A stretch of 64,000 nt of DNA from Candidatus Heimdallarchaeum aukensis (GCA_021513695.1 CP084166.1:992001-1056000); one strand, 5' to 3'. Positions 36,184-54,374 are shown, counted from the stretch's first letter. Made by a program: numbers and translations. The notes: generated by a model from the letters alone, not told the origin.

Positions 36184-37419
36184 ATGTCATTTAATTTTGA
36201 AGTTAAAAATACAATTGCATCCTTAAGGCAATCAAGGTTGAAGCTTGGCAATGTAGAAATAGAAACACCAAATTATATAATGACACATATTGAAACTAGA
36301 CGACTTACTACAGGGTATAATCTTGTTGGGAGTCGTGAGCCTAACCCAAAACTGAATGAATTAATTAGTGATCATATACCTGATAGATTAACTGCACAAA
36401 AAATATTTGAAAACTCCGATGAAATAGAAAAATTATGTAACAAGCTAGATAACTTGACTAAATCTGATCGGATGAATTTTGTTCAATTTCGTTTGAAGGC
36501 TGGAAATGAAATTAGCAAATATGAATTATGTCAAATTGTTAGGTTGCAGTCTGATATGAACAAATTTTCCATTATAACAATACCTGATCCTACTTGTTCA
36601 TATAATAACTCTTGGATTGATTCTATGGAAGCAGCTCTCTATGAGGCTAAGGTTTCACAAGAAGTTGGAACATCGGAACTATTTATGCCTACTGTTTCGC
36701 TTGCTCAGCCTTTATTGGATGTGGAAAAGAAAATTTCGTGGTTAATAGATAAGCAAGTTCCATCCATTGGATTAAGAGCACACGGGCCACATTTTCCAGC
36801 TACTTTGCACAAATCAACAAATCTGATTACACAATCAGATAATCCGATTTGGATTCATCTGTTTGACTTATCCAAAAAATATAAGAATGTGTCCCAACTG
36901 CATTTGGCACCTTTGACAAGTGTTGATACTATTTCCTTGAAAAAAAAACATGGGTATAGCAGCAGCAAGAAAAATATTATGGATGGTTTATTGCCAACAC
37001 CAGAGAATATATCTTTAGAACCAACTGCTAGGGAAATAGAAGAACAAAAGGTCAGAGAGATAAAGCGTAGTCAACGGTTTTTGTTTGAGCAATTAGCTTT
37101 AGGTTACATTTCTATAAATGAGCGGACTAAATGGATTGGTCATGAACTTTCTTGTACTTGTCCCATTTGTAAAAAGACAAAAGATATAGATACCTTTAGG
37201 ATTTATCTCTCAACACATGATAAAAACTCACTTCTACAAGTGCATGAATATACTGGTTTTAACCAGGAAATGTTGGCAATTAGAAAAAATATTAGGGATA
37301 ATGATATCTCAGAGTATTTTAGACAAAAAATATTAGTAAAACGACATAGACGCAAACTATCTAAAAGATATCCTGAGCTTGAAAGGTTTATTAATCCGCC
37401 TTTAGATAGTTACTTCTGA
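36184..37419 (+). CDS. Divergent tRNA-guanine transglycosylase (TGT) family protein (ArcTGT/DpdA-like)
   Basis: The N-terminus MSFNFEVKNTIASLRQSRLKLGNVEIETPNYIMT parallels archaeal TGT (FEIK..GR.G.L....IETP..MPV). Candidate catalytic Asp residues sit in QSDMNKF and HLFDLS. The zinc site is ELSCTCPICKKT...H, followed by LLQVHEY. About 100 aa of C-terminal extension are basic. Confidence 0.6.
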   Translation: MSFNFEVKNTIASLRQSRLKLGNVEIETPNYIMTHIETRRLTTGYNLVGSREPNPKLNELISDHIPDRLTAQKIFENSDEIEKLCNKLDNLTKSDRMNFVQFRLKAGNEISKYELCQIVRLQSDMNKFSIITIPDPTCSYNNSWIDSMEAALYEAKVSQEVGTSELFMPTVSLAQPLLDVEKKISWLIDKQVPSIGLRAHGPHFPATLHKSTNLITQSDNPIWIHLFDLSKKYKNVSQLHLAPLTSVDTISLKKKHGYSSSKKNIMDGLLPTPENISLEPTAREIEEQKVREIKRSQRFLFEQLALGYISINERTKWIGHELSCTCPICKKTKDIDTFRIYLSTHDKNSLLQVHEYTGFNQEMLAIRKNIRDNDISEYFRQKILVKRHRRKLSKRYPELERFINPPLDSYF

Positions 37420-37447: not shown

Positions 37448-38059
37448 ATGAATCAAAAAGCGACAAAAAATATGTCGGAAGAAGAAAATAAAATGATAAA
37501 AAAATGGATCTATTTAATGTTAGCTGCAGATAACAATAGTTCAATCAAAGGAAAAGTTAGAATAACTAAAGAATTCTTTTTGATTACCAAGCAGTTAGCT
37601 CCTGAAGTATTTAAGGCAGCTCAATTCTATCCTTATCACTTTGGGCCTTATAGTACTCGTTTTGCTGTTTGTGTTAACGAACTGATTAAAAGTAATCATA
37701 TTAATATATTGTATAAAAGTGGAGATTATCATTATGAGTTGTCAAAAAAAGGTTTAGTTGAAGCTAAAAAATATTTGAAAACAATCCCTAAGAAAGAAAA
37801 ACAAGTAATTGATGATATTAAGAAAAAAAGTAAGTCTCAATCTTTAAAATCAATGTTAAAAGAAATTTACGAAAAATATCCTAAGTATACAGTTCGTTCT
37901 GTTATTAAAGCAGATCTTGATACTAAAAAAGTAAACTTAGATTCTGTAGAAAAAGTAGATGATAGTTCAGGGTTTGTTTCAAGTGATATGAAACATGAAC
38001 GTGACATCGTCTTGAAAGGTGAAGCTGCAAAAAGATTTCTAGAAATAATCTCAAAGTGA
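37448..38059 (+). CDS. Hypothetical protein, candidate antitoxin for the downstream GNAT toxin
   Basis: It ends 7 nt before the GNAT toxin. Its C-terminus ERDIVLKGEAAKRFLEIISK resembles the toxin-binding C-terminal helix of DUF1778 (TacA/AtaR) antitoxins. At 203 aa it is much longer than typical. Confidence 0.4.
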   Translation: MNQKATKNMSEEENKMIKKWIYLMLAADNNSSIKGKVRITKEFFLITKQLAPEVFKAAQFYPYHFGPYSTRFAVCVNELIKSNHINILYKSGDYHYELSKKGLVEAKKYLKTIPKKEKQVIDDIKKKSKSQSLKSMLKEIYEKYPKYTVRSVIKADLDTKKVNLDSVEKVDDSSGFVSSDMKHERDIVLKGEAAKRFLEIISK

Positions 38060-38066
38060 TACATCA

Positions 38067-38570
38067 ATGACTAGTCATGAAGTAGAGTATAAAATTGAGA
38101 AACTAAATATATCTCATACTCTATTAGACTTTGATTGTGGTGATGAAAACGTTAATGAGTATTTTAATCAGAGAAGCTATGAAGAAGTTGAATTAGGTAA
38201 TGCTCAAATTTATGTGTTTATACTTGTGAATACAAATGACCTCATAGGTTTCTATACGCTTTCAATGAAATCTGTTCGTTTTAACTATGAAGGAAGAGAA
38301 TATGATCAACCTGTGTGTTTGCTTGGGCAAATTGGAGTAAATAAAATTTTCCAAAATAAAGGTTGGGGAACAATATTAATTAAAGATGCAAAGAAGAGAT
38401 GTAAAAAAATCTCAGAAGATATTGGAAGCATTGGTTTATTATTGGAAACATATAAAGAAGAATTAGTGAACGGGTTTTTCAAGAAACTTGGTTTCGAATA
38501 TGTTGAACATCACAAAATGAAAAACCGAGGTACAAGATATAGATTGTTTTGCAAACATGAACATGAATAG
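38067..38570 (+). CDS. GNAT-family toxin of the AtaT/TacT/KacT type (aminoacyl-tRNA acetyltransferase toxin family)
   Basis: LLDFDCGDENVNEYFNQRSYEEVELGNAQIYVFILVNTNDLIGFYTLSMKSVRF, then LLGQIGVNKIFQNKGWGTILIKDA, then IGLLLETYKEELVNGFFKKLGFEYV. These align block by block with AtaT (F.CG.e.Ln.fL / vGyYtL / QGqGwG / LGF). Confidence 0.7.
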   Translation: MTSHEVEYKIEKLNISHTLLDFDCGDENVNEYFNQRSYEEVELGNAQIYVFILVNTNDLIGFYTLSMKSVRFNYEGREYDQPVCLLGQIGVNKIFQNKGWGTILIKDAKKRCKKISEDIGSIGLLLETYKEELVNGFFKKLGFEYVEHHKMKNRGTRYRLFCKHEHE

Positions 38571-39589: not shown

Positions 39590-40933
39590 TTATTCCTCAT
39601 GAAGTAAAGGTGTTTCTAAAAGGACATTTGTTAAGTCGATATTGTTAGGGTTTATTTTTTTTGGATAAACAAAAGAGAAGTGGCAGACGTAAGATTTGTT
39701 GTTTCTTATTATTTTGATCCAAACATTTTCTGGTTTTTCCATTATTATTCTTAACATCCATGATGTATTTTCTTCTGATACTCTAAGCAAGGCATAAAGA
39801 GTTCTTTTTTTTAATTCTAGTGTCTTATACTTTTCGAATTTTTCTTTTAACTGTTCTGCGTTCCCCCAAAAAAGGTTGGGAAAAACTTTTTCATCTTTAT
39901 CAAATACTATTGTTATCTCTTTTATTTTATTGTACTCTGAAATATCTTTCAAGATTTCCTTCTTTTCATCAATAGGGATTCTTTGTTGAATACCTCTAGA
40001 TTTTCTTAAAATTTGATCGAGGAGAAACCATATTGAATTGTCCATATATTTAATAAACGAATTAATTTCCATTTTAAATGCAACTTCTGTTTTTTGTATT
40101 TCTACATTACCTTTTTTATTTATCCAACCGTTTATTTTAAAATAAGAAAAACGAGGATCGACATATTCGAAAGATTGTTTGGGTGGAAAGGTTTTTCCAT
40201 TTTTTCTTGCCAAAGTTATTGCATCTTCTATCCATAATTTGAAATTGGTATTTGCTGACCTTGCGGGAATTTTGTCAATAATAACCCATATCTCATCGTT
40301 ATTGAAATCCAGAACTTTTTTACCACTATGTGTAACAGTATTACGTAAGTATAGAAACACACTGAATGCAAGTGATGGATTGATATATTTATCTGAATAG
40401 GGCTCGTAATGTCTAATTAGTTCATCAAAAATACGTTCATACCTATATCGTTTTAATTCGGGAAGATTATTTAAATACGCTTCTGTGAATCTTGAAGTTA
40501 GTTCCAAAAGTTCCAGACCAGCTGAAACATATGTTTCAAAGAGACATATAAAAAGGAACTTTATAGTTGGTATTTTAGTCCAATCAAATCGTATTTGATA
40601 ATACTCTATTTGGTCTCTTACTAATTGGAAGTACGCAAGTCTATATTTAATGCTGTTTAATGTTTCAATATACCTTCCTTTTTTCACTAATTCATTAATA
40701 TGAAAAACTAGTAAACTGTAGTCTCTTGATTCGTTATGTGCTTCCAGATAGTATGAAAACATACTCAAAACGCCAAGACTTGTATCAAGAACATGCCGAG
40801 AAATACTAATTTCTTTTTTTTCTTTTTTTTCTTTTAACGAATTAAAAAACTCATATTCGTTAAGCAAAATTTTTAACAAAAGTTCATGAGATTCTTTACT
40901 TTCTATTTCTTGCTTATCCTTATTTTGATTCAT
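39590..40933 (-). CDS. Hypothetical 447-aa protein, no recognised domain
   Basis: A long ORF whose 5' end faces repeat copy B and its pyrimidine-rich leader-like tract. Confidence 0.45.
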   Translation of the reverse strand: MNQNKDKQEIESKESHELLLKILLNEYEFFNSLKEKKEKKEISISRHVLDTSLGVLSMFSYYLEAHNESRDYSLLVFHINELVKKGRYIETLNSIKYRLAYFQLVRDQIEYYQIRFDWTKIPTIKFLFICLFETYVSAGLELLELTSRFTEAYLNNLPELKRYRYERIFDELIRHYEPYSDKYINPSLAFSVFLYLRNTVTHSGKKVLDFNNDEIWVIIDKIPARSANTNFKLWIEDAITLARKNGKTFPPKQSFEYVDPRFSYFKINGWINKKGNVEIQKTEVAFKMEINSFIKYMDNSIWFLLDQILRKSRGIQQRIPIDEKKEILKDISEYNKIKEITIVFDKDEKVFPNLFWGNAEQLKEKFEKYKTLELKKRTLYALLRVSEENTSWMLRIIMEKPENVWIKIIRNNKSYVCHFSFVYPKKINPNNIDLTNVLLETPLLHEE

Positions 40934-41500: not shown

Positions 41501-42637
41501 ATGATGGAAATAAACAAAATTTATCTTAAAGATTGTATAGAAGGTATGAAGGAACTTCCTGAAGATAGCATAGATTTAATATTTGCAGATCCACCATATA
41601 ATCTTCAATTGAAAAATGAATTATATCGACCTAATCAGTCATTAGTGGATGCTGTAAATGATGAATGGGATAAATTTTCATCATTTGAAGAGTACGATGA
41701 TTTTACAAAAAAGTGGTTATCAGAATGTAGGAGGGTGTTAAAAAAAACAGGTTCTATATGGGTAATAGGGTCGTATCACAATATATTTAGAATCGGAAAA
41801 ATAATGCAAGATTTAGGTTTCTGGATATTAAATGATATCATTTGGATAAAAACAAACCCTATGCCAAATTTTAGAGGTACTAGATTTAATAATGCACATG
41901 AAACTCTGATTTGGGCTTCGAAAAATGAAAAAGCTAAACCTACTTTTCATTATAAAGCTATGAAGGTATTTAATAATGATAAACAAATGCGAAGTGATTG
42001 GTATATTCCAATTTGTATAGGAAAAGAAAGGTTGAAATTAAACGGAAAAAAATTACATTCTACACAAAAACCTGAAGCATTGCTATATAGAATAATAATA
42101 TCAACATCAAATGTAAATGATATAGTGCTTGATCCTTTTATGGGTTCAGGTACTACAGCTGCAGTAGCAAAGAAACTAAGAAGGAATTTTATTGGTTTTG
42201 AAACAAATGAAATATATGTAAAAGCAGCAAGAGAGAGAGTTGTTAAAGTCATACCCATGGATCCTGACATTTTGGATTATAAAGTGGAAAAAAAACCACC
42301 AAAAGTTCCTTTTGGTACTTTAGTAGAACATAATTATATTAAAGCTGGAGATTGGCTTTATTCAAAAGATATGAGATATAAAGCAATAATAAAAGCAAAT
42401 GGGTCAATTGAATATCAAGGTAAAAACGGTTCTATTCATAAAATTAGTGCTCAAATTTTAAATAAAAAAGCAAATAATGGATGGGATTTTTGGTATGTAA
42501 AAGAAAACGATAATCTTGTATCGATTGATACTATTAGAAGAAATTATGCAAGTAAAAACATGAATTATATGAATGATGAAATAGATATGAGAAATAAAAA
42601 AGTAACAGACAAACTTTTAACTAATTACTTGGAATAA
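41501..42637 (+). CDS. DNA methyltransferase, beta-class (N6-adenine or N4-cytosine), part of a Type II R-M pair
   Basis: Motif IV IFADPPYNL lies near the N-terminus and motif I LDPFMGSGTTAAVA lies downstream, which is the beta-class order. About 130 aa of C-terminal extension follow. Confidence 0.85.
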   Translation: MMEINKIYLKDCIEGMKELPEDSIDLIFADPPYNLQLKNELYRPNQSLVDAVNDEWDKFSSFEEYDDFTKKWLSECRRVLKKTGSIWVIGSYHNIFRIGKIMQDLGFWILNDIIWIKTNPMPNFRGTRFNNAHETLIWASKNEKAKPTFHYKAMKVFNNDKQMRSDWYIPICIGKERLKLNGKKLHSTQKPEALLYRIIISTSNVNDIVLDPFMGSGTTAAVAKKLRRNFIGFETNEIYVKAARERVVKVIPMDPDILDYKVEKKPPKVPFGTLVEHNYIKAGDWLYSKDMRYKAIIKANGSIEYQGKNGSIHKISAQILNKKANNGWDFWYVKENDNLVSIDTIRRNYASKNMNYMNDEIDMRNKKVTDKLLTNYLE

Positions 42638-42642
42638 TCTTC

Positions 42643-43512
42643 GTGCTTACTAATTATCTTCCCTATGAAGTTTTTAAAAGAATATTAACAAAGACAATCT
42701 TTCAAAATGCTAAAATAAGTTTATTAGAAAAAGTTGCTAAATATCCTTCAAGATATACAGGTTTATTTAGGCCTACCAAACCTAAATTAAAATTAATCCA
42801 GAACATTACTCAATCAAATGAAATTCTATTTGGCGATGCTTTTGAGATCATAATTAATGAATATTTGAATAGATTAGGTTTCTCTCCAATTAAAAAAAAT
42901 TATTCCTATAATGGAAATGACTTAATGTTTGATCAGATTGTAGGAAAAGAAAATACTATTATTTACATAGAACAAAAAATAAGAGATGATCATGATTCAA
43001 CAAAAAAAAGAGGTCAAATAGAAAATTTTGAGAAAAAGGGTGAATTATTATTGAAACTATATCCTGATTTCAAAATTACTGGTATAATGTATTTTATAGA
43101 CCCAAATTTAAAGAAAAATCGAAGATATTATATGCAAGAATTACAAAGAATAAGTACTCAATTTAATTTTGAAACTCATCTCTTTTATGGAAAAGAGTTT
43201 TTTGAATGGATAGGAAAAGATGAAATCTGGTTAGAAATAACAAGCTATTTATCAAAGTGGAAAGAAGAGATACCTGATTTTCCCACAATTAATTTTGATG
43301 AAAATCCCGAAGAATCTTTTGAGGAAATCAAGCATCTACAACCTAATTTACTGATAAAGCTTCTAAGAAATGATGCAATATGTAAGGAGATTTTTCCCGA
43401 ATTGTTCCCGGAAAAAACGACATTAAATCTACTTCTGGAATACTATATTCATGAAAGAGAAAAAAATAAGACTAATACAATGGTTATTGAACATTTAAAA
43501 AAAGTGTTGTGA
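42643..43512 (+). CDS. Putative Type II restriction endonuclease, cognate to the methyltransferase
   Basis: It starts 5 nt after the methyltransferase stop. A PD-(D/E)xK-like arrangement is present: ...DAFEIII... D..MFDQIV... IIYIEQKIRDD (D...ExK). Confidence 0.45.
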   Translation: MLTNYLPYEVFKRILTKTIFQNAKISLLEKVAKYPSRYTGLFRPTKPKLKLIQNITQSNEILFGDAFEIIINEYLNRLGFSPIKKNYSYNGNDLMFDQIVGKENTIIYIEQKIRDDHDSTKKRGQIENFEKKGELLLKLYPDFKITGIMYFIDPNLKKNRRYYMQELQRISTQFNFETHLFYGKEFFEWIGKDEIWLEITSYLSKWKEEIPDFPTINFDENPEESFEEIKHLQPNLLIKLLRNDAICKEIFPELFPEKTTLNLLLEYYIHEREKNKTNTMVIEHLKKVL

Positions 43513-44322: not shown

Positions 44323-45342
44323 TTAATTAGAGCAATATGAAGTTTTATTTGTGAAAATTTCAGGATCATCTAGTTCTCTCAATCTTTTAAGTGTAACACT
44401 TTTCCATTTATCATAAAAATCAACTAAAATACCTTCTTTTTCCTTTAATGTTGGTTTTCCTGTATCATCATCCATAATAAATTCAAATCCGTAATCAATC
44501 TTAAAATTAAATTGATCTGTATGCAAAACTCTTTCATGAGGAAACTTAATATCGTTATCCAAAGATGAACAAAAATTATAATGTCGAACTTCAATATGAA
44601 TTGATGAGTTTGAATATAAACCAAGCCAGTCCATTATATTTTTCTTTGTTGATTGAGGATTATATCTATTTGCTTTCGGTGTTGTAGTACAAATAATAAA
44701 ATTGCCATTTCTTATATTCTCCTTTTCAAATTGTTTTACTAACCAATTTAATGTTTTATAGTGTCGCTTATTATTAACTAAATTTACACCAAGATATCTG
44801 TCCACAATCATTACTTCCTTTGCAAATCTGAATATCTTTTTGATAAATCTTGAATGCACTTCTGTTAAATTATTTAATTCTGCTAAGTTTAATGATGTAT
44901 TCTGTATTTTATTGTAGAAATCTATTTCTGTAATTAATTCCTCTGATACATAGCTACTACTCAATTTTCCAATTTCACACTTATTTCTACAATTATTGTA
45001 AGGAAGTATTATCCAATCTGGATTTTCTCTGCTTTGAATTTCACAATAAGCTATACATTCATCTTTTTTTTTCTTTCCTTCAATTTTAATTTCAATTATT
45101 CTTCTATTATTTTGCATATTCGAAAGCATTTCTTCTATGATGAGTCTTTCTTCTATTGGTATAAGTGAAAGGGTTTTTGATTTAATAGGTAAACTAAAAC
45201 CTTCTGGTTTTAGAAGTATACCGTTTTTTCTAAGGGAAATCAATAAAGAAACTAATATTTTAGAACGATACATAATAAGCGTAGAATTTTCAGAATTGTC
45301 ATCTAAAATTTTAGGAGATAATACAAATGTCTGTACCGTCAT
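44323..45342 (-). CDS. Hypothetical 339-aa protein, partner of the upstream ABC ATPase; candidate nuclease/effector
   Basis: Its start overlaps the stop of the ATPase gene by 4 nt. It contains an acidic cluster EFIMDDDTGKP that could be a DxD metal site. No confident domain assignment. Confidence 0.45.
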   Translation of the reverse strand: MTVQTFVLSPKILDDNSENSTLIMYRSKILVSLLISLRKNGILLKPEGFSLPIKSKTLSLIPIEERLIIEEMLSNMQNNRRIIEIKIEGKKKKDECIAYCEIQSRENPDWIILPYNNCRNKCEIGKLSSSYVSEELITEIDFYNKIQNTSLNLAELNNLTEVHSRFIKKIFRFAKEVMIVDRYLGVNLVNNKRHYKTLNWLVKQFEKENIRNGNFIICTTTPKANRYNPQSTKKNIMDWLGLYSNSSIHIEVRHYNFCSSLDNDIKFPHERVLHTDQFNFKIDYGFEFIMDDDTGKPTLKEKEGILVDFYDKWKSVTLKRLRELDDPEIFTNKTSYCSN

Positions 45343-47249
45343 TCAAATAGCTCCTTATAACTTAGATCAAAGAAATCATCTGGCCATTCATTTATAAAAT
45401 TACCATGTTTGTCAAATTCGATAGGAACTATATTAGCTCCTAGTTTTGTTTTTTCAACAAATATAATTGATATAAGTTTTGGACTTATTTTCTTTTTCCT
45501 AATGAGTTTTTTGATTCGTAGAATTAATTGTTGACTATGAGTTTCAATTATAAATTGTTTTGATAAATTCCTTTTAACATGTTCAACAAAAAATTCTCCC
45601 AATTCAGCTTGCAATCTTGGATTAAGATGTATCTCTGGTTGTTCTATTAAAAGAATTTCATTTGGTTTATTTGACATTATCGTTTGTACAAGAATGGGGA
45701 GAACCTGACTCACACCAAATCCAATATCCGGTAATGCCACCGGATATTTTGTGATATTATCTTCGAATTTCAAGGAATATACCCCTGATAGTTTGTCTTT
45801 ATCTGCTGTATATGAGACTGTGTAACCGATTTTTAGTTTTTTCAACCAATTATTTAGTTCATTTATTTTATTTTTATATGAATAGATAAAATCTGCTGTT
45901 TTTGATCCTGAAACACCTACATTAATAGGTCTACTCCCTCCAAATATGTAATATCGAGATGGTTTATCTCTAAGAGGACCAATAAAAGTAATGCTCTTCA
46001 TCAATTCAATGAATTGATTTCTATTCTCTTCAGTCACGTCATAATCAAAATATAAATTCTTTTTTCCATGTTCAAGTTTAAAAAACGTGTTGATTTTAAG
46101 TAATTCACCTTTAATTGGATTACCAACAAATTCAATAGATAAATTATGATGAATAAACTTAATTAATTTGTTAATTAGATCTGTTTCTATCTCCGATGGG
46201 TCTTTAAACATAATAATTCTAAATAATTTCTCAATTTTCATATTAATTGATTCTTCAATTAGAATCCTAAAATCATGATCGATTAAAATATCATCTTTTA
46301 TTTCATTTAAACCAATTTCAACCTTTTTGCAAATTTTTTCAATTATTTTATCTTTTTTTAACAGAAAAAATTTGTTTTTTTCTAATTCTCTTCTAATTTT
46401 TTCTACTATATTTTTAATTTCAATTTTTTTCGCTTGACTATTTTCCTGATAAATTTTCAATATAGTTTCTATAGGAACTTTAATATTAATCGTAGGAATT
46501 TTATCGTTATCAAAATGAATCTTCTTTTCAATTTTTTCTTCTATATCAAAGACATCAATTTTAAATTTCTCTTCATATGCAGAATAAGAGATTATAAATG
46601 GTGTATCAATGTTTTCAACAATTGTGATTTTCTTGTATCCTCCAGATATTGACTCTCTCAAAAACGGTAAAAGAATCATCGGTATAACTCTTTCTGTACT
46701 TATTTTTGAAAGAGAACAAGTATATTTTATCCGCTGATAAATCCTAGAATTTTCTGTTTTGCAATATACTAATTTTGCTGAAATTAATGATTTTTCAATC
46801 TTTTTGCCATAATTTCTAGATATTCCCCATATTATTTTATCTAAAAGAATGTAAGGTCTCTCTTCAATCTTTTTTGAAATGTATGTTAAGTTGATTTTGA
46901 ATTTTTTAAAAATCCTTTCCTTGTATGGTGAAATATGAAGATAATCTGAGGATCGCCACTGTAACCCAATTTCAACTCTTTTTCTAGTATCATGACCAAA
47001 AACAATTTCTTCGAAAGGTCCAATATCAACATAAGTCCCTTGATGTAGAAGAACATTATTTGGGTCATTGTCTTCTATAGTTTGTTTTAAGGCTAAAAGT
47101 GATTTCAAAATAGATGATTTTCCACTACTATTTTCTCCAAATATCAGTGTAATCGGTTTACATGGTATTCTAGAGCCCTTTTTTCCAAAGGCTTTAAAAT
47201 TTCTTAAATAAATTTCAGTTAACATGAACAAACACCAAGTTTCTTTCAT
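45339..47249 (-). CDS. ABC-type (AAA_15/AAA_21-like, OLD/AriA/LmuB-like) ATPase with a split nucleotide-binding domain
   Basis: An N-terminal IYLRNFKAF...ITLIFGENSSGKSSIL (Walker A) is followed by about 480 aa of insertion. Then comes LLIEQPEIHLNPRLQAELGEFF (Walker B/D-loop, reading E-Q where D-E is usual) and IIETHSQQ (H-loop). Confidence 0.7.
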   Translation of the reverse strand: MKETWCLFMLTEIYLRNFKAFGKKGSRIPCKPITLIFGENSSGKSSILKSLLALKQTIEDNDPNNVLLHQGTYVDIGPFEEIVFGHDTRKRVEIGLQWRSSDYLHISPYKERIFKKFKINLTYISKKIEERPYILLDKIIWGISRNYGKKIEKSLISAKLVYCKTENSRIYQRIKYTCSLSKISTERVIPMILLPFLRESISGGYKKITIVENIDTPFIISYSAYEEKFKIDVFDIEEKIEKKIHFDNDKIPTINIKVPIETILKIYQENSQAKKIEIKNIVEKIRRELEKNKFFLLKKDKIIEKICKKVEIGLNEIKDDILIDHDFRILIEESINMKIEKLFRIIMFKDPSEIETDLINKLIKFIHHNLSIEFVGNPIKGELLKINTFFKLEHGKKNLYFDYDVTEENRNQFIELMKSITFIGPLRDKPSRYYIFGGSRPINVGVSGSKTADFIYSYKNKINELNNWLKKLKIGYTVSYTADKDKLSGVYSLKFEDNITKYPVALPDIGFGVSQVLPILVQTIMSNKPNEILLIEQPEIHLNPRLQAELGEFFVEHVKRNLSKQFIIETHSQQLILRIKKLIRKKKISPKLISIIFVEKTKLGANIVPIEFDKHGNFINEWPDDFFDLSYKELFE

Positions 47250-47317
47250 TCACACTCTTGATGAATTCTTTACAAATTTATGTAATAAAAATAAAAACTT
47301 TTCTGGAATATCTATGT

Positions 47318-50300
47318 TTAATTTTCACTAAGATATTTTATTATTTTAGGAAGTAGGAAAACATTTTTTCTTAATGTTGAAAAACTTAATGCTTCTCCTA
47401 GAAGTGTGTGAACTTGTTTAGGTATTTTTCCAAACATTGGATGACTAACTACATATCCATAGGTAAATGATTTGAAATTCCCACTTTCTATTATTACACG
47501 CATTGGCTCTTCCAACAAGCTCATATCACCAAAGTAAATGCTTGATAATGGTGATGATAATGCTCTTAAACGTTCAATAGTTGCTTTTTCAATATCTTCA
47601 CTCAAAAAAATATCACTATCTTCTATTATATCAAGAGTTATTAATAAATATGAATCACCAGCAAATATAATTGGTGGACTTAAAAGTTTACTAAATTTTT
47701 TTGCTAATGAAAATGCATTATTTGTTGAGTTGATAAAATGATATAAGCTTGGATATTTTCTACTTTTTTCATCTTTTTTTACATTTCTTCCATAATAAGT
47801 TCTGACCATCTTTTCTAAGTAGTTTAATCCTTTATTTATTGTGTATAAGTTTCGAGGTTTTTCCAGATAATTAAGTATTTCTTGTTTATCTGTTTTGTCA
47901 TAAGCTTTTACTGTTACACGAAAACCTTTTGCTATTTGTTGATTAGTGACTTTATAGAATAGATAAGAAGGTATCGTCATATCATTCCATCTACCTGCTT
48001 CATTAAATGTAAGTATAAATTCAGGAGAGGGATATAATCTGAAATGGTTTAATGCTGTTTTTATAGATGGAAAATAATTTTTCAAAAAATCATCTAAATA
48101 GATATTATCAACTGAAAATGCTCTTTTACTAACTCTTCCAAATAGACTGAATTTTCTTTTAGTTCTTTCCGAAATCTTGCTTCTGCTAAAAACTGGTAGG
48201 ACATGTTCATTATTGTTGATTAGTATATCTCTAATAAAACTTCTTAACTGATGAAATTTGATATTTTGATCTTTTAGAGTGGCATTTTTGTTCAAAGCAG
48301 AAATCATAGACACTAATCTTGGCTTCAAATCTGTTTCTTCTCCTCTCATCCTTTTAATTACTTGCCTAAAATATTCTAGATTGATCATAGAATCGAAATA
48401 AGTTGTTGAGCCATAGTCTGTTTTTAAGGGGAAAGGAGGAAGGATAATTAAAATTTCATGCCATGAATATGTAGTTCCAAATGCTAATGAAGAGGTTCCT
48501 ACTATATTTTTTTTAGGTGTTTCTTCTATTAATAATGTGTCACGAGAATCGTGAGTAATAGAAACTGCATCATAATTGTTTAAATGGAGGTATTCTACTA
48601 ATGAATCTACAAACTGTTTATTGTTAACATAAAAAATTACTTTACCCTCTTGTAAATATTTTTCAAATGATTTTTTTCTATTGTCAATTCGTGATTTTTT
48701 TACAAGCTTGTCTAATATTTCAAAAATTTTTTTAAAATTTATTTCCTCTTCATATTTACCCTCACAAATAAATGATGCTGCACAATAATCAATATTGAAA
48801 TTTAAGAGATATCTCAGAAAAATACCTTTAATCGGAGTATTAATTATTTTAAATTCCTCTGGTTCTTGAATGTCTTCATTAAAATTAGTTATTTGAAATT
48901 GTGTCATCCATTTTTTTGAATTTGGATCAACTAATGTGTTCAACATGGAAATTACTAATTTCATACTTGTGATAGATGCATCAGTAATTACAAAGCGAGG
49001 AACATTTATGTTATTATTTACCATTAATCGATTCCTTGCTTCTATTAGTAAATCAATAAAATTTTTTGCAACTGTTGGTCCAGAATTAGTTAATTCATCA
49101 AAGATGAACATATATGTCTTTGTGAATAGTAATTTCCAATTGTATGATTGTTTTAGAAAATAATCTAAAGCTTGGGAAGATACTAATATAACTTTTTGTC
49201 CTTGTTTCTCTAGTGCTTTTTTCAATCGATTTCCTGTTTCACTGAAAATTGTTTCATACCCCTTAAGTGTTATTGGATCTCTTATTAACTCTTTTTCTCT
49301 TTTACCAATAATTAATTCTAAATGGACATTTTTTTCTATATCATTTTTGATTAATCTTTGAATTTTATCTTTAGTTTGTATTAAGGTTGTAATTCTTGGA
49401 CAGAAATACAGAATAGTAAAGTTTTTTTTAGTTTTTGCAAGCTTTTTAATATAATTTGCAATCACATAATTTTTTCCAACACCTTGAGATGAACCATTTA
49501 TTATTATATTATAACAATCATTGGTTAATAATTTTAGGAAGTTCTTCTCATGTTCTTTTCTTACATTTTCTATTTCGTTTCTAGTAACACTCTGTCTTTT
49601 TACGATAGAAGGTTGAATCTTCTCTTTAGTTTCAGGATAAGCTTCAATAAATTCTGTTTTTTCATCCTTCAAAATTATTTTTAACTCCTCTCCTCTAGTT
49701 CCTTCAAAAAAATACATTCTTTTATTGTTTTTTTCTTTTATTCTCATCGATATTTTTCCACTCATAAATAATTCAAAAATTCGTCTTCTTTCAAAATCTT
49801 CCAATATATATTCTTTCTTTTTACCAAATTCTGTTTCCACTATAGTACTAGGAATCAAGTTACATAGAAATCGTAATATTTTCCTTAAATCGGTTTCAGA
49901 TTTAATATGAAAAGAAGATATAGCTCCAGGTAAAACTATTTGAACTTCAATCTCACTGTTATAATTTTGAGTTTCGTTATAATATAATTGTGCATAGGAG
50001 AATACTTTTAAGTATTTCTGGAGAGCTGTTGCAATTCTGTAAAAATCTCTTGCAGGAATCTTTTTGTTCTTATGTAAATTTAGTTTTCTTAGTTTTTCCT
50101 TTGAAAAATCTTCGACAATTAATTGTTCAATATAATCTTGAAGTAATCGCTCTTTCGTCATATTTACAAAAAATATATATGATTTAATATCGCCAATACA
50201 TAAGAACTCGATTTGGTTCATTTCATAATTAAAGGCTTCCTCTTGATTGTTAGATGTTTTCTTTCTAATGATTATAAAATCAGGTTTTTTTTCCCTAAAT

Positions 50301-50779
50301 GTTGGTTCTATAAATATTTCTAATTCTGTATCTGGTTTTTTCCATTCAAGATTTGCATTTAGTAATACCGATATTGAACATTGAAATCCTGTTTTTATCA
50401 TTCTTAAGGCTGTATATCCCACTTTTTGTTCTTCCAAAATATCTGTGATTTCTCTTTCATCAATCTTTAAGTCTGTTCTAAACATTTGCCTTTTTTGAAA
50501 ATAATTTTTAAATATTAAGTACGAATCTGTGATGCTTGATTTTCTGATAAATAAATCGATTGCTTGTTCTATCTGTATTCCAATTACATTTTCAAGATAT
50601 GAATTCAACTCTATTCTATTTTCAATATCTAAAATAGGTGGTTCAATTCTTATGCCTACAAAAGGTTTAATGTTGTAGCATTTTGATTTTGACGCAATTC
50701 CAAGAAAGAATCCAAATTCAAGTGCTTCTCCATATATTAATGGTGCTATTCTATTAATTTTCTTTTCGTAATTTACCAT
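47318..50779 (-). CDS. Large (1153-aa) P-loop NTPase, possibly helicase-like
   Basis: Walker A-like INGSSQGVGKNYV sits around residue 425 and a Walker B-like hydrophobic-DE MFIFDELTNS sits about 125 aa later. There are further helicase-like stretches (VITDASIT, NIVGTSSLAFG). Flanking domains are unassigned. Confidence 0.5.
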   Translation of the reverse strand: MVNYEKKINRIAPLIYGEALEFGFFLGIASKSKCYNIKPFVGIRIEPPILDIENRIELNSYLENVIGIQIEQAIDLFIRKSSITDSYLIFKNYFQKRQMFRTDLKIDEREITDILEEQKVGYTALRMIKTGFQCSISVLLNANLEWKKPDTELEIFIEPTFREKKPDFIIIRKKTSNNQEEAFNYEMNQIEFLCIGDIKSYIFFVNMTKERLLQDYIEQLIVEDFSKEKLRKLNLHKNKKIPARDFYRIATALQKYLKVFSYAQLYYNETQNYNSEIEVQIVLPGAISSFHIKSETDLRKILRFLCNLIPSTIVETEFGKKKEYILEDFERRRIFELFMSGKISMRIKEKNNKRMYFFEGTRGEELKIILKDEKTEFIEAYPETKEKIQPSIVKRQSVTRNEIENVRKEHEKNFLKLLTNDCYNIIINGSSQGVGKNYVIANYIKKLAKTKKNFTILYFCPRITTLIQTKDKIQRLIKNDIEKNVHLELIIGKREKELIRDPITLKGYETIFSETGNRLKKALEKQGQKVILVSSQALDYFLKQSYNWKLLFTKTYMFIFDELTNSGPTVAKNFIDLLIEARNRLMVNNNINVPRFVITDASITSMKLVISMLNTLVDPNSKKWMTQFQITNFNEDIQEPEEFKIINTPIKGIFLRYLLNFNIDYCAASFICEGKYEEEINFKKIFEILDKLVKKSRIDNRKKSFEKYLQEGKVIFYVNNKQFVDSLVEYLHLNNYDAVSITHDSRDTLLIEETPKKNIVGTSSLAFGTTYSWHEILIILPPFPLKTDYGSTTYFDSMINLEYFRQVIKRMRGEETDLKPRLVSMISALNKNATLKDQNIKFHQLRSFIRDILINNNEHVLPVFSRSKISERTKRKFSLFGRVSKRAFSVDNIYLDDFLKNYFPSIKTALNHFRLYPSPEFILTFNEAGRWNDMTIPSYLFYKVTNQQIAKGFRVTVKAYDKTDKQEILNYLEKPRNLYTINKGLNYLEKMVRTYYGRNVKKDEKSRKYPSLYHFINSTNNAFSLAKKFSKLLSPPIIFAGDSYLLITLDIIEDSDIFLSEDIEKATIERLRALSSPLSSIYFGDMSLLEEPMRVIIESGNFKSFTYGYVVSHPMFGKIPKQVHTLLGEALSFSTLRKNVFLLPKIIKYLSEN

Positions 50780-50780
50780 T

Positions 50781-53702
50781 TTATATCAACTTCTCCTGAA
50801 TTTTTATTCTGTTTATCCCTTTGATGAAAATACTTGGATCTAGCAACTTTTTGGAATCAGGATATGGTAGATGAAATAACCTTTTTAAACTTTCAATACT
50901 AATTCCGCCTTTTTCATCTCCGTAAATGGTTAATATTCTTGAGAATTCTTTCAAATAAGAAATAGTTTCTTCAGACGATCTTTCATATGGTATTACAGTA
51001 AAAATAAGAGACGGTTGTAAATCTTTTTTAATTTCACCCTCAAGCTTTTCTTCTCTTCTCGAACCAAAAATCAACATTCCAACTATTTTTCTCTTATCTC
51101 TTCCATTATATTTCAAAGGTTCATTAATATATATAATTAATTGTCTATTTGATTTTGACTTTGGCAGTAATTTTCCAATTTCTCTTGAAGGAGTAAAAAT
51201 AGCTTTTTCATTAAAAACAAACAATGGAATTTTTAATTGTTTATTCTTTTCAAATATCCAGTCAATAATGGTATCTTCTTTACTAAGATCACTATCTTGT
51301 ATTTTTCTATTTACAGATTCAGATATAATGTCATAAGTGCTCTCCGTTCTTGAACTATGTTTAGCTCTTATTAAAATTAGAATATCTTCTTTTGCTAATT
51401 CTGATACTATTAGTGAGGCTAATTCAAAATTTATATCGCATCCTATGTTTCCAAATGAATCTTCTATAAAGTTTTCCTCCATTACATTAATTTCTCGTTC
51501 ATCAGTTAGGTGAGCATAAGCTGCGATATTTCTTATGTATCTTTGTTCTTCTTTAATTATTTCGACCCATTTTTCTGATGAAAGAGAAAGTAATAATATA
51601 TCTTTTGTTTTTATTAATTTATCAAGAGCTTTATCATGTAGAGTATATCCCGCTGTAGAAGTATTTTTTAAGGAGTGTGAAGTAAAATACCATTCATCCA
51701 TAAATAATCTTCCAAAAGCTTTATTTATATTATGATAATTTGATAAAAACTTGTACAAATAGATACCAGGTAAAGCAATTTTTTTCTCTTTGGAAGCTGT
51801 TTGATAAGTAAATAATTCTACTTTACCTATGTTATCAAAAGTATAAAATGAAAAAGGTCCATCGAAGTATTTTAAGATTTGATTTTTTGACCATACTACA
51901 TTCCCGTTTTTTCTAATACCATCTTTTGTCATCATTTGAACATTAATACGTCTTCTTGACCTATTGATTGTACTTTTATTTTGCCAGATTTTCTTTATTA
52001 TTTGCCTAATCTCTTTTTCTTTATATTCTTTTGATAAAGAATCAAAAGAAAAGCCTTGAGAATATTCGAAATATTTTGTTTCCCATGAGTGTACTCCTTT
52101 TAATAACATATAATAAAATTCATGAAAAAGACTTCTTTTTACTTTCTTCGATAAATATGGGATAAACCAAATGTTATCTCCTCCTTTTACAAATCTAAAT
52201 TCATGATTAAGCCTTGTTAAAGATTGTTTAATATCAGGGTCATTAATTAGGTATAGTATTGCACTATCTATAACTGCCTTTAAAGATGCAAAAAATCTAT
52301 AATTGTCGTTGTTTAGTCTTTCTCTCAAATCTGTATTAATTCTTTTGTGATATATTTCAATTTCTTCTGGAAAAAATTCAGTATTTGCTATAAGATAAGT
52401 GATAAATTCTTGTAATCCATATTCTTTATCTCCATACCAGATAGATGTTTTATTTTTTTCATCAATTCCTTCATTCTTTTTTAAATAAATATTTTCATGA
52501 ATAAAAACTATCAATCTTTTTGGATTTATTTGTTTGGGAGAGATGTTTATCTTTTGAATTCTTTCTAATTTCTCTTTTTTTGCGCATAAGTAATGATCAA
52601 ATTCTGGAAATTCACAATTTTCAACAATTTCCTTTAGTTTATCAAATAATTCTTCAAAATCTTTATAACTTATTTCGTTAAAACCTAAAAGTATTGAAAA
52701 AGCGAATAATTTATCTTTAATATCTTCAACCATTTCTAAGAATTCTTGGTCATTTGTATCCATTTGTTCCATTATCCATTCTTGAAGGTTAATGAGTAAA
52801 GGCAAGATTGTTTTTTCTTTATTCCAGCCTTCTCCATATATTCTGAAACAATAAAGGTTTTTATCATAATCTTCATGAAGATTAAGAAATTTTGGGCAGC
52901 TTCCTACAGAGATTAATCCAGGAAAAGAAGGAAATGACATACCTTTGAAACTATGATTTATTATTTTCTCAAACAGAGTTTTCTCTTCAGCTGATAATTT
53001 TTTAATAAATTTATCATTCTTAAGTAAGACGGTACATTCTTTCTTAAAATCTAAATATCTGTCGTATGCAGCATTACGAACTTCTTCATTTCTAATGTAT
53101 TTTATATAATATTTTACTAATTTTTTCTGAACTGGATTATTAATAATGTTTGAAAATTGCTCTGTAGCTTTAATGGAAACTTCTTCTGCTTTTAAAGCTG
53201 TTTTAAAAAATGAAATTGGAATCTCATTTTCATGAATTTTCTCATTTGCGTTTCTAAATCTTGATTCATTTTCTTGAATTTCAATATAAGAAAAAGTAGA
53301 ACCAACTTCTTCTGATTTCCATTCATCTCGCTTTGCTTTATCCCATAATGTTGCTGGATTTTCATACTTTTTTTCTTTTTTCATTAACTCTTCTTTAATT
53401 GTGATTATAACTTTGTCGCTTATCTCTAATAATGTAGTATTAGGACTTTGGACAATTCTAGATTTTAGCTTTTTCACCAGTAACCAATTTTGTAACGAGG
53501 GATCAGATATTTCATTAATTTCTTCTAATGTATTTTGATACGCTTTGTGAACTATTCTACAAAAATCATCAAAGGGATATGTTATAGTACAAAGCATATC
53601 AAAGAATTTTTTATCCTGAATATATTCTGAAATTAATTTTGAGAAGAATATAGACCAAAATTCTTTATCTATTCCTTCTGTTAGTTTTACTAATCTAGCC
53701 AC
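50781..53702 (-). CDS. Large (973-aa) hypothetical protein, first gene of a four-gene operon
   Basis: A long ORF with no recognisable motif. It ends 1 nt before the 1153-aa gene and is preceded by a 670-bp AT-rich non-coding region. Confidence 0.5.
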   Translation of the reverse strand: MARLVKLTEGIDKEFWSIFFSKLISEYIQDKKFFDMLCTITYPFDDFCRIVHKAYQNTLEEINEISDPSLQNWLLVKKLKSRIVQSPNTTLLEISDKVIITIKEELMKKEKKYENPATLWDKAKRDEWKSEEVGSTFSYIEIQENESRFRNANEKIHENEIPISFFKTALKAEEVSIKATEQFSNIINNPVQKKLVKYYIKYIRNEEVRNAAYDRYLDFKKECTVLLKNDKFIKKLSAEEKTLFEKIINHSFKGMSFPSFPGLISVGSCPKFLNLHEDYDKNLYCFRIYGEGWNKEKTILPLLINLQEWIMEQMDTNDQEFLEMVEDIKDKLFAFSILLGFNEISYKDFEELFDKLKEIVENCEFPEFDHYLCAKKEKLERIQKINISPKQINPKRLIVFIHENIYLKKNEGIDEKNKTSIWYGDKEYGLQEFITYLIANTEFFPEEIEIYHKRINTDLRERLNNDNYRFFASLKAVIDSAILYLINDPDIKQSLTRLNHEFRFVKGGDNIWFIPYLSKKVKRSLFHEFYYMLLKGVHSWETKYFEYSQGFSFDSLSKEYKEKEIRQIIKKIWQNKSTINRSRRRINVQMMTKDGIRKNGNVVWSKNQILKYFDGPFSFYTFDNIGKVELFTYQTASKEKKIALPGIYLYKFLSNYHNINKAFGRLFMDEWYFTSHSLKNTSTAGYTLHDKALDKLIKTKDILLLSLSSEKWVEIIKEEQRYIRNIAAYAHLTDEREINVMEENFIEDSFGNIGCDINFELASLIVSELAKEDILILIRAKHSSRTESTYDIISESVNRKIQDSDLSKEDTIIDWIFEKNKQLKIPLFVFNEKAIFTPSREIGKLLPKSKSNRQLIIYINEPLKYNGRDKRKIVGMLIFGSRREEKLEGEIKKDLQPSLIFTVIPYERSSEETISYLKEFSRILTIYGDEKGGISIESLKRLFHLPYPDSKKLLDPSIFIKGINRIKIQEKLI

Positions 53703-54374
53703 AAACTTCTCTCCTCATAGGTAATTGTACTAAAACTTATCTTGAATGTTAAACAATTTCTTTTTTTATTTATATAATTTTTGATAATAAATGTTTTCAT
53801 CTTTTATTCATTTATTATCTGTATTCAATAAATTATTCATGAGTTTAGTTTTATCTTTTTAATATTAATCAAAAATATGCTATATGTTTAACTTTGACGA
53901 CTTAGAGTAATCTCAAATTGTTGTTATAGTAGTTAGATTTATTTTTTATTTATATTCACCCACTAAAGTTTTATTTAACTCGCTTCAACTCTTTAAATTA
54001 AATATGTCTAGTTGATAGATACATTTTCATCCTCCTATACGCTTGAAAATACTAGATGATTCTCTAGTTTAAATTATATGGTTAATGTAAGAAGATATAC
54101 AAGTTTAAATGCCATAAAACGGAGACGTTGGCCATGAAACAAAAATAAATAGAATACTGTTGTTTTCTAAGTGCAAAGAAAAATATATAGAAGTATAAAA
54201 TACAAAAATTAGTGTAAGAGAAAAATAAGAAACTCAACAAGAATTTACAAAAAGTAGTTTAGCATAAAAAATAAGAAAGTATTTTATTATGGTGCAATTG
54301 CTAAGACATGACAAAATAATATGGTTGTTTGGTGATTTAATTAGAAAAATTTAATAACCAAAGTAATTAAAAAA

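Follow-up and report, generated by a model that had tools for sequence, protein, structure and literature searches.

The four long genes at positions 44323-53702 of a 64,000-nt stretch of the Candidatus Heimdallarchaeum aukensis genome (an Asgard archaeon; genome 3.08 Mb) form a 9.4-kb cluster on the minus strand, and their products are referred to here as P1 to P4. The whole 64,000-nt stretch is called the window, and all coordinates follow its numbering. On balance, the cluster probably comprises two independent two-gene immune modules lying head to tail: module A, an Argonaute-like protein with a nuclease-helicase (P1-P2), and module B, an ATP-binding cassette (ABC) ATPase with its partner (P3-P4). 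P1-P2 constitutes an undescribed, archaea-restricted candidate Argonaute-like defence pair.

50781-53702, minus strand: gene 1 (P1), 973 aa, GTG start, NCBI locus K9W45_04270
47318-50779, minus strand: gene 2 (P2), 1153 aa
45339-47249, minus strand: gene 3 (P3), 636 aa
44323-45342, minus strand: gene 4 (P4), 339 aa, K9W45_04255
53703-54374: intergenic region 5' of P1, 672 nt, AT-rich, ~25% GC

The listing of open reading frames (ORFs) and a reading of the junctions bear out the four genes, lengths, and spacings given in the first-pass annotation of this DNA. The TAA stop of P1 is followed by one base (position 50780) and then by the ATG of P2, a 68-nt spacer (47250-47317) separates P2 from P3, and P3 and P4 overlap by the 4-nt ATGA (45339-45342). 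Within the P2-P3 spacer, TTTTTATTTTTATTA may serve as an oligo-T terminator of the archaeal type, as a TATA-like promoter element, or as both. The true start of P3 is probably Met9 (MLTEIYLRNFKAF), because the Pfam AAA_15 alignment begins there and GGTG lies 8 nt before this Met; the spacer would then measure 92 nt. A GAGGAG ribosome-binding-like motif is found ahead of the P1 GTG start, and the region upstream presumably holds the promoter of the P1-P2 unit; the 670-bp AT-rich promoter region described earlier thus stands in size and composition, its promoter role being a presumption. A scan for sigma-70 promoters and terminators gave background values (66 sites versus 73.5 expected), the bacterial consensus being uninformative for an archaeon. 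The GC content of all four genes is 26.4-26.9%, versus 29.8% for the window.

The strongest evidence for the two modules comes from the recurrence of P1-P2 as a strictly adjacent pair. Ten further loci were recovered (L002, L003, L004, L006, L007/L008, L009, L010, L014, and L015), and in all ten a P2 homologue of ~1020-1210 aa directly follows the P1 homologue on the same strand, with a spacing from a 26-nt overlap to 0-1 nt. The P2 homologues are collinear over their full length at 25-52% identity overall (25-27% at the lowest). The pair shows a sporadic, accessory distribution over Heimdallarchaeum, Lokiarchaeum, Thermococcus, and Archaeoglobus. In none of the six loci with visible downstream sequence is the P2 homologue followed by a gene like nsnB, the closest known relative of the P3 gene by profile score. 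The genes found after the pair are convergent phospholipase D (PLD; DrmC-like) and MkoA-like (Mokosh) helicase genes with viperin in L002, an SSV-type integrase 1.4 kb downstream in L006, a TPR protein (1180 aa) in L008, an FRG-UDG protein in L009 (Lokiarchaeum ossiferum CP104013), a convergent reductase among histidine-biosynthesis genes in L010, and uvrB in L014. The lack of an NsnB-like gene in these six informative loci argues against a single four-component system. The first-pass annotation had left open whether the unit is one system of four components or two stacked pairs, and had proposed a search for co-occurrence elsewhere; two stacked pairs are favoured, with P1 and P2 together in every other locus and the four-gene order in none of the six informative ones.

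Defence genes surround the pair in three loci, namely the window, L002, and L009. Several further features were observed around the homologous pairs. In L002 (1556-3226 and 13532-19663), the pair is flanked by two MkoA-like helicases, a DrmC-like PLD protein, and viperin (pVip 2e-80), which make up a second, differently composed defence island. In L009 (16762-18693 and 20047-23147), a PDC-S15-like FRG + UDG protein and a 1563-aa NERD protein lie after the pair, and a small HNH_3 gene lies before it. In L008 (141-5050 and 12773-17439), the pair is accompanied by genes for an ADP-ribosylglycohydrolase, a T4-type RNA ligase, ParA, the 1180-aa TPR protein, and an RNase H + DUF3223 protein. In L015 (12782-15917), from a metagenome-assembled genome (MAG) of Archaeoglobus, the P2 homologue is split into ORFs of 739 aa and 317 aa; a frameshift, a pseudogene, or misassembly close to the end of the contig may explain the split.

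The second protein of the pair had been described as a P-loop protein, and its Walker A motif and hydrophobic-DE box are both present as reported; the description itself needs correcting to a superfamily 2 (SF2) helicase with an N-terminal PD-(D/E)xK-type motif. P2 matches Pfam ResIII (E 1.7e-6) and also DEAD, and ResIII is detected in five of the six family members; no relative was found by sequence in PADLOC, NCBIfam, PDB sequences, or PHROGs.

48335-49567, minus strand: SF2 helicase core of P2 (residues ~405-815), from the invariant columns of alignment A7
50177-50308, minus strand: PD-(D/E)xK-type motif region of P2 (residues 158-201), with E158, P166-D167, and D197-x-K199

The helicase core contains motifs I (GSSQGVGKN, 429-437), Ia (PR, 461-462), II (FDELTN, 560-565), III (DASITS, 600-605), V (GTSSLAFG, 761-768), and VI (RQVIKRMRG, 805-813). 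Across alignment A7 (25-52% identity), the invariant patterns are S-QG-GKN (I), PR (Ia), DE--NS (II), DAS-T- (III), N--GT---AFG (V), and E--RQV-KR-RG (VI). In the N-terminal region, P166, D167, and K199 are invariant in the six P2 homologues (25-52% identity), E158 is mostly conserved, and position 197 holds D in five of them, with E in the L008 sequence (VELK); this motif suggests a PD-(D/E)xK nuclease fold. The C-terminal region is likewise conserved across the family. By its motifs, P2 appears to fuse a nuclease to a helicase, much as HsdR and Cas3 do. Like type I HsdR and Cas3-type proteins, which depend on a separate recognition partner, it combines a nuclease motif with an SF2 ResIII-type motor in ~1000-1150 aa. 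Unlike them, it has no HsdM/HsdS or Cascade genes beside it, and no HD domain was detected.

P1 seems, from sequence searches, to found a small family confined to archaea, in which no domain is detected by sequence. A word-indexed search of 5.8 billion proteins returned three homologues of P1 and two of P2, and a HMMER profile search among 1.84 billion representative proteins returned just 17 relatives of P1. All named relatives are archaeal (Archaeoglobus, three Thermococcus strains, and Lokiarchaeum ossiferum); the nearest homologue found shares 60% identity, and the collections contain no near-identical copy. P1 has no match in Pfam, PADLOC, NCBIfam, or PHROGs, which agrees with the first-pass statement that P1 and P2 match no named family. 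Pfam scans of all 14 family members at E up to 10 brought no domain to light either. Profile searches of PDB sequences (alignments A1, A2, A3, A4, and A7) gave no meaningful match, profile scans of genome contigs with two P1-family alignments gave no confirmed locus, and neither a tblastn search of 72,556 plasmids nor a scan of IMG/VR viral contigs gave a relative. The Pfam families DNA_primase_lrg, MmeI_N, and DUF7207 were considered among the P1 relatives and rejected, as each was matched by one member only, below the cut-off.

The earlier statement that P1 carries no motif holds at the sequence level, while its predicted fold resembles Argonaute and NurA. The AlphaFold2 model built from the 14-sequence family alignment is confident, with a mean predicted local distance difference test score (pLDDT) of 80.7 and a predicted template modelling score (pTM) of 0.82. 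In a Foldseek search with this model, Argonautes take the first 14 places; RsAgo (E 1.9e-5, probability 0.99, ~760 alignment columns) is followed by Aquifex Ago, MILI, the SPARTA short Ago, and human Ago3, and then by NurA. The HerA-NurA and TdpAB complexes are also among the matches. The Argonaute/NurA fold is given by two independent programs. Global template modelling (TM) scores between P1 and its matches are low (~0.2), the usual outcome of rigid superposition of multi-domain proteins.

50913-52595, minus strand: MID-like and PIWI/RNase H-like region of P1 (residues ~370-930), from model secondary structure and 14-member conservation; boundaries estimated

An RNase H-like core with the order beta-beta-beta-alpha-beta-alpha is predicted at residues 702-801. 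The polar residues invariant in the 14 members are N440, K475, D479, H527, Y530, Y531, N587, Q589, S677, R724, D929, and E930, the first eight of which cluster in a Rossmann-like region before the core; among these, K475, D479, H527, Y530, Y531, and Q589 fall within the part presumed to be MID-like. The C-terminal tail is strongly conserved as well (D929-E930, R941, and D949). The predicted first strand of the core (beta-1, 701-715) contains no family-wide Asp. Judging from the model, P1 is probably an Argonaute-like (MID-PIWI) protein and not a canonical slicer.

Among prokaryotic Argonautes (pAgos), the long-B protein RsAgo and the short pAgos of SPARTA and SPARSA are catalytically inactive and rely on neighbouring effectors, which offers a parallel for P1-P2. 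Unlike these pAgos, P1 has no detectable sequence similarity to Argonautes (Pfam, PADLOC, and hhalign against TtAgo), is larger (973 aa), and has a helical N-terminal third, while its partner is a helicase-nuclease fusion and not a SIR2, TIR, or simple nuclease protein. Another comparison is provided by the pPIWI-RE operons, which encode a divergent PIWI protein, a DinG helicase, and a nuclease of the restriction endonuclease fold (Burroughs, Iyer and Aravind 2013; PsPIWI-RE from Pseudomonas, PMC10991935). As in these operons, a predicted PIWI-type protein has as genomic neighbours an SF2 helicase and a putative nuclease of the restriction endonuclease fold, which here would be fused in P2; the analogy is one of gene content only. 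Unlike pPIWI-RE, no pPIWI_RE module is detected in the 14 P1 members, P2 is ResIII-like (ResIII, DEAD) and not DinG-like, and the P1 family is archaeal, whereas the characterised example comes from Pseudomonas. No literature mention of P1-family proteins was found under six accession or locus-tag identifiers, and no P1-P2-like pair is described in the Asgard Argonaute paper. P1-P2 is best called an Argonaute-like protein with its effector, with a real chance that it is something more distinct.

Module B is of a more familiar kind. P3 matches Pfam AAA_21 (6e-18), AAA_15 (3e-14), and DUF3696 (1.3e-5; residues 588-635, the C-terminal helix). Among PADLOC models it scores best with NsnB (1.7e-58), the HEC-03 ATPase HEC-03B (1.9e-52), and PDC-M55A (9.3e-51), followed by AriA (2.4e-22) and GajA (1e-9 or weaker), and it matches phrog_21420 over its full length (5e-52, PHROGs). 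The split architecture noted in the first pass is confirmed: Walker A lies at 38-45, and a stretch of inserts of ~460 residues separates it from the signature-like GFGVSQ (510-515), which is followed by the Walker B-like LLIEQPE (533-539) and the H-loop ETHS (569-572). P3 can be classified by these profiles as an ABC ATPase of the NsnB/HEC-03/PDC-M55 (DUF3696) clade, assigned to none of the three specifically because its scores on the three ATPase models are about equal. The viral contig scan contained no relatives of P3.

P4 was modelled at low confidence (pLDDT 48.8) and has no match in Pfam, PADLOC, NCBIfam, or PHROGs. In this model, its N-terminal half is an alternating beta/alpha domain, and its C-terminal half (residues ~160-339, nt 44323-44865) appears PLD/MIT_C-like, with the conserved motifs IVDRYLG (179-185) and PHER (268-271); the best PDB fold match of this model is the PLD-like MIT_C domain of MITD1. 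The acidic DDD cluster (292-294) highlighted in the first pass is present, and it was rejected as a catalytic site because it reads NDN in the sole homologue. The P3-P4 pair is seen again in L005, with the same 4-nt overlap.

In the Menshen system (NsnA-NsnB-NsnC; Millman 2022; Li et al. NAR 2025, PMC12065111), NsnB is flanked by NsnA, a ParB-DUF262 sensor, and NsnC, which joins an inactive PIN-like N-domain to a nuclease domain that varies; in the predicted assembly, the DUF3696 helices of an NsnB tetramer clamp the N-domain of NsnC, and NsnB is peculiar in having GxG instead of SGG and a Walker B dyad EN rather than DE (PMC12065111). P3 is likewise an AAA_15/21 ABC ATPase with a C-terminal DUF3696 helix (NsnB model, 1.7e-58), shows GxG (GFGVSQ) and a non-DE Walker B (EQ, where NsnB has EN), and its stop is overlapped by the partner gene by 4 nt. 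The fold matches of the C-terminal half of P4 in its low-confidence model (MITD1 MIT_C, PLD, and Tdp1) are the same as those of PB-PLD1, an effector domain that certain NsnC proteins carry and that is described by an acidic residue following an early strand, an HDR motif, and a MIT_C-like fold. Unlike Menshen, the cluster contains no NsnA gene (ParB-DUF262 + ParBDB): neither DUF262 nor ParB was detected in the two genes upstream of P3 (Pfam, PADLOC, and NCBIfam) or in the P1 and P2 homologues. In addition, P3 is ~200-300 aa longer than a typical NsnB, P4 matches no NsnC model, and the module belongs to an Asgard archaeon; in the Menshen survey (n = 1997), the taxonomy key names bacterial groups only (PMC12065111), and Menshen is not mentioned in two Asgard and archaeal defence surveys.

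HEC-03 is a two-gene system that protects E. coli and needs both genes (Payne et al. 2024, bioRxiv 10.1101/2024.01.29.577857). P3-P4 resembles it, and PDC-M55, in pairing a DUF3696 ABC ATPase with an overlapping downstream partner and in lacking a DUF262 sensor. Stand-alone DUF3696 ATPases with an overlapping partner are common and occur on bacterial plasmids without NsnA, as PDC-M55A/B in Bacillus pacificus and as HEC-03 pairs in Aeromonas and Azotobacter. Unlike true HEC-03 members, P3 reaches 177 bits on the ATPase model versus 445 bits for the Aeromonas plasmid protein, and P4 does not match the model of the PIN partner (~160-177 aa), on which the Aeromonas partner scores 2e-24. Similarly, P3 reaches 171 bits on PDC-M55A versus 267 bits for the Bacillus member, and neither P4 nor protein P0009 matches PDC-M55B (~315-350 aa), on which the Bacillus partner scores 2.5e-26; a BLASTP search of P4 against that partner gave no match. 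P3-P4 resembles a Menshen NsnB-NsnC module without NsnA, or a two-gene HEC-03, and these scores mark it as a divergent archaeal representative of the DUF3696 ATPase-effector kind that belongs to none of Menshen, HEC-03, and PDC-M55 in particular. The earlier comparison with OLD, PARIS, and Lamassu holds for the broad class of an ABC ATPase with a putative nuclease. As specific assignments, PARIS, OLD, Gabija, and Lamassu were rejected, since the NsnB-clade models score far better than AriA (2e-22) or GajA, and no Toprim or AriB was detected in P3 or P4 (Pfam and PADLOC). Of the suggested new defence system, P3-P4 is therefore not new in kind, and P1-P2 stands as the undescribed pair.

As a separate observation, a gene of the RNA ligase family lies directly after the HEC-03-type ATPase-PIN pair on the Azotobacter and Aeromonas plasmids (L011 8927-9619; L013 6301-7002) and may be a third component of that HEC-03 variant.

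For module A, P1 would most likely act as a nucleic-acid-binding sensor, possibly guide-loaded, because no family-wide catalytic Asp is found in the first core strand; its MID-PIWI-like lobe would bind either a guide or some end or structure specific to the invader. Probable translational coupling with P1 would yield P2 in stoichiometric amounts, and P1 would recruit or license it, after which the SF2 motor of P2 could translocate on or unwind invader DNA and the fused PD-(D/E)xK nuclease could cut it. Additionally or instead, P2 may make guides from invader DNA. Some bacterial pAgos are reported to depend on RecBCD for guide generation. In a bolder version, which seems possible though doubtful, the P1 family would represent an unrecognised, deep-branching, archaea-only clade of Argonaute-like proteins that is invisible to profiles and fixed to a PD-(D/E)xK-SF2 helicase, providing self-contained guided immunity; P2 would then take a RecBCD-like role, turning invader DNA into guides, destroying the recognised target, or both.

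For module B, the analogy with Menshen, HEC-03, and PDC-M55 suggests that a P3 oligomer might hold P4 through the C-terminal DUF3696 helices. P3 would sense infection, perhaps through its enlarged inserts, and, by analogy with the Menshen, Septu, and PARIS models, ATP binding or hydrolysis by P3 could release or activate the PLD/MIT_C-like phosphodiesterase domain of P4, which would degrade nucleic acid.

Several observations weigh against two modules with an Argonaute-like pair. The MID and PIWI (RNase H-like) folds that mark a pAgo are found in the predicted structure of P1 only: none of the 14 family members has a Piwi, pPIWI_RE, or NurA Pfam match at E up to 10, and hhalign of the P1-family alignment A4 against TtAgo gives a probability of 0.06. 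Positions 747, 788, and 832 of P1 are acidic (D/E) in 12 of the 14 sequences and could form an active site, so the role of an inactive sensor is not firm. Neither P1 nor P2 matches any PADLOC model, the pair stands among housekeeping genes in Thermococcus sp. EP1, the Archaeoglobus MAG, and L014, and the P4 model is of low confidence, any PIN-like N-terminal domain in it being putative. Finally, in L003 a P1 homologue of 60% identity stands on a contig that breaks off within the P2 homologue, and in L005 the contig starts within a P3 homologue of 60% identity; both could derive from a single lineage that shares the four-gene order of the window. These two loci of similar divergence, as possible halves of one arrangement, would fit a single four-component system in which P1 and P2 replace NsnA and signal to P3, which controls the effector P4. 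The tight packing of the four genes on one strand, their similar GC content, and the lack of a DUF262 NsnA gene at the cluster point in the same direction. Such a system is nevertheless improbable, given that no NsnB-like gene follows the pair in any of the six visible loci, that DUF3696 ATPase-partner pairs work and occur alone, and that the sole sizeable gap in the cluster (68-92 nt, T-rich and TATA-like) falls exactly at the module boundary.

Two other explanations concern P1-P2 itself. The pair could be a DNA repair or end-processing machine in which P1 is a NurA-like nuclease with its own helicase, analogous to the archaeal HerA-NurA; the HerA-NurA and TdpAB complexes among the Foldseek matches of P1 are consistent with this, as are the housekeeping genes on both sides of the pair in Thermococcus sp. 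EP1 and the Archaeoglobus MAG and the neighbouring uvrB in L014. This explanation is unlikely, as the family is too rare and patchy (17 relatives among 1.84 billion representatives), the closest P1 homologue is merely 60% identical with no near-identical copy from a close relative, and three of the loci are defence islands. The proteins also differ from their proposed counterparts: the motor of P2 is an SF2 helicase, unlike the HerA/FtsK-type hexameric ATPase of HerA-NurA and TdpAB; NurA, with its catalytic Asp/Glu/Asp, is only a third as large as P1, in which the NurA-type Asp of strand beta-1 is not conserved; and the distribution of P1-P2 is sporadic, unlike that of the core HerA-NurA. Alternatively, P1-P2 might serve the replication or recombination of an integrated mobile element and not host defence, which is the least probable of the explanations weighed here. 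In its favour, L006 has an SSV-type integrase gene past the pair, L008 has genes for ParA and RNase H-DUF3223 nearby, the pair forms a two-gene insertion between housekeeping genes in L010, and the window contains a TnpB-like gene. A nearby integrase does not discriminate, because defence systems often ride such elements; moreover, the search of 72,556 plasmids and of IMG/VR viral contigs gave no P1 relative, and no recognisable replication initiator, capsid, or conjugation genes stand beside the pair at any locus. Two independent modules, with P1-P2 as a candidate defence pair, are accordingly preferred.

The defence island in which the first-pass annotation placed the cluster is real on one side, where the cluster adjoins other defence genes. 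The type II restriction-modification (R-M) pair reported there is confirmed and consists of an N6/N4 methylase with a C-terminal RAMA domain and a HinfI-like endonuclease. The reported GNAT operon and insertion sequence (IS) remnants were also recovered, as a GNAT gene with a PDC-M19A-like partner and as a TnpB-like gene. On the upstream side lie genes for an HAD hydrolase, an Rce1-like protease, and an ODP lactamase.

41501-43512, plus strand: type II R-M pair, convergent to the operon and downstream of it (PADLOC MTase_II 1e-171, REase_II 7e-76)
39590-40933, minus strand: island ORF of 447 aa, no Pfam or PADLOC match
37448-38570, plus strand: PDC-M19A-like/DUF4364-like 203-aa protein, then GNAT acetyltransferase, in a layout like a toxin-antitoxin pair
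36184-37419, plus strand: island ORF of 411 aa, no Pfam or PADLOC match
31345-32802, minus strand: TnpB/Cas12f-like protein, 485 aa (PADLOC Cas12f 1.9e-12), probably an IS200/605-type element
23335-27942, plus strand: largest ORF of the window, 1535 aa

A third of archaeal genomes contain no known defence system beyond clustered regularly interspaced short palindromic repeats (CRISPR) and R-M (PMC12988326), and in Heimdallarchaeia fewer systems are detected than in the remaining Asgard groups, a shortfall that has been taken to point to uncharacterised ones (PMC11291487). P3-P4 extends the DUF3696 ATPase-effector (Menshen/HEC-03-like) systems to an Asgard archaeon. P1-P2 matters more: if P1 is truly Argonaute-like, it adds a clade that profile-based censuses would miss, in the lineage closest to eukaryotes and with a built-in helicase-nuclease partner, and would bear on how guides are obtained and effectors enlisted in Argonaute systems. 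Homologues in cultured Thermococcus strains and in Lokiarchaeum ossiferum make this hypothesis experimentally testable.

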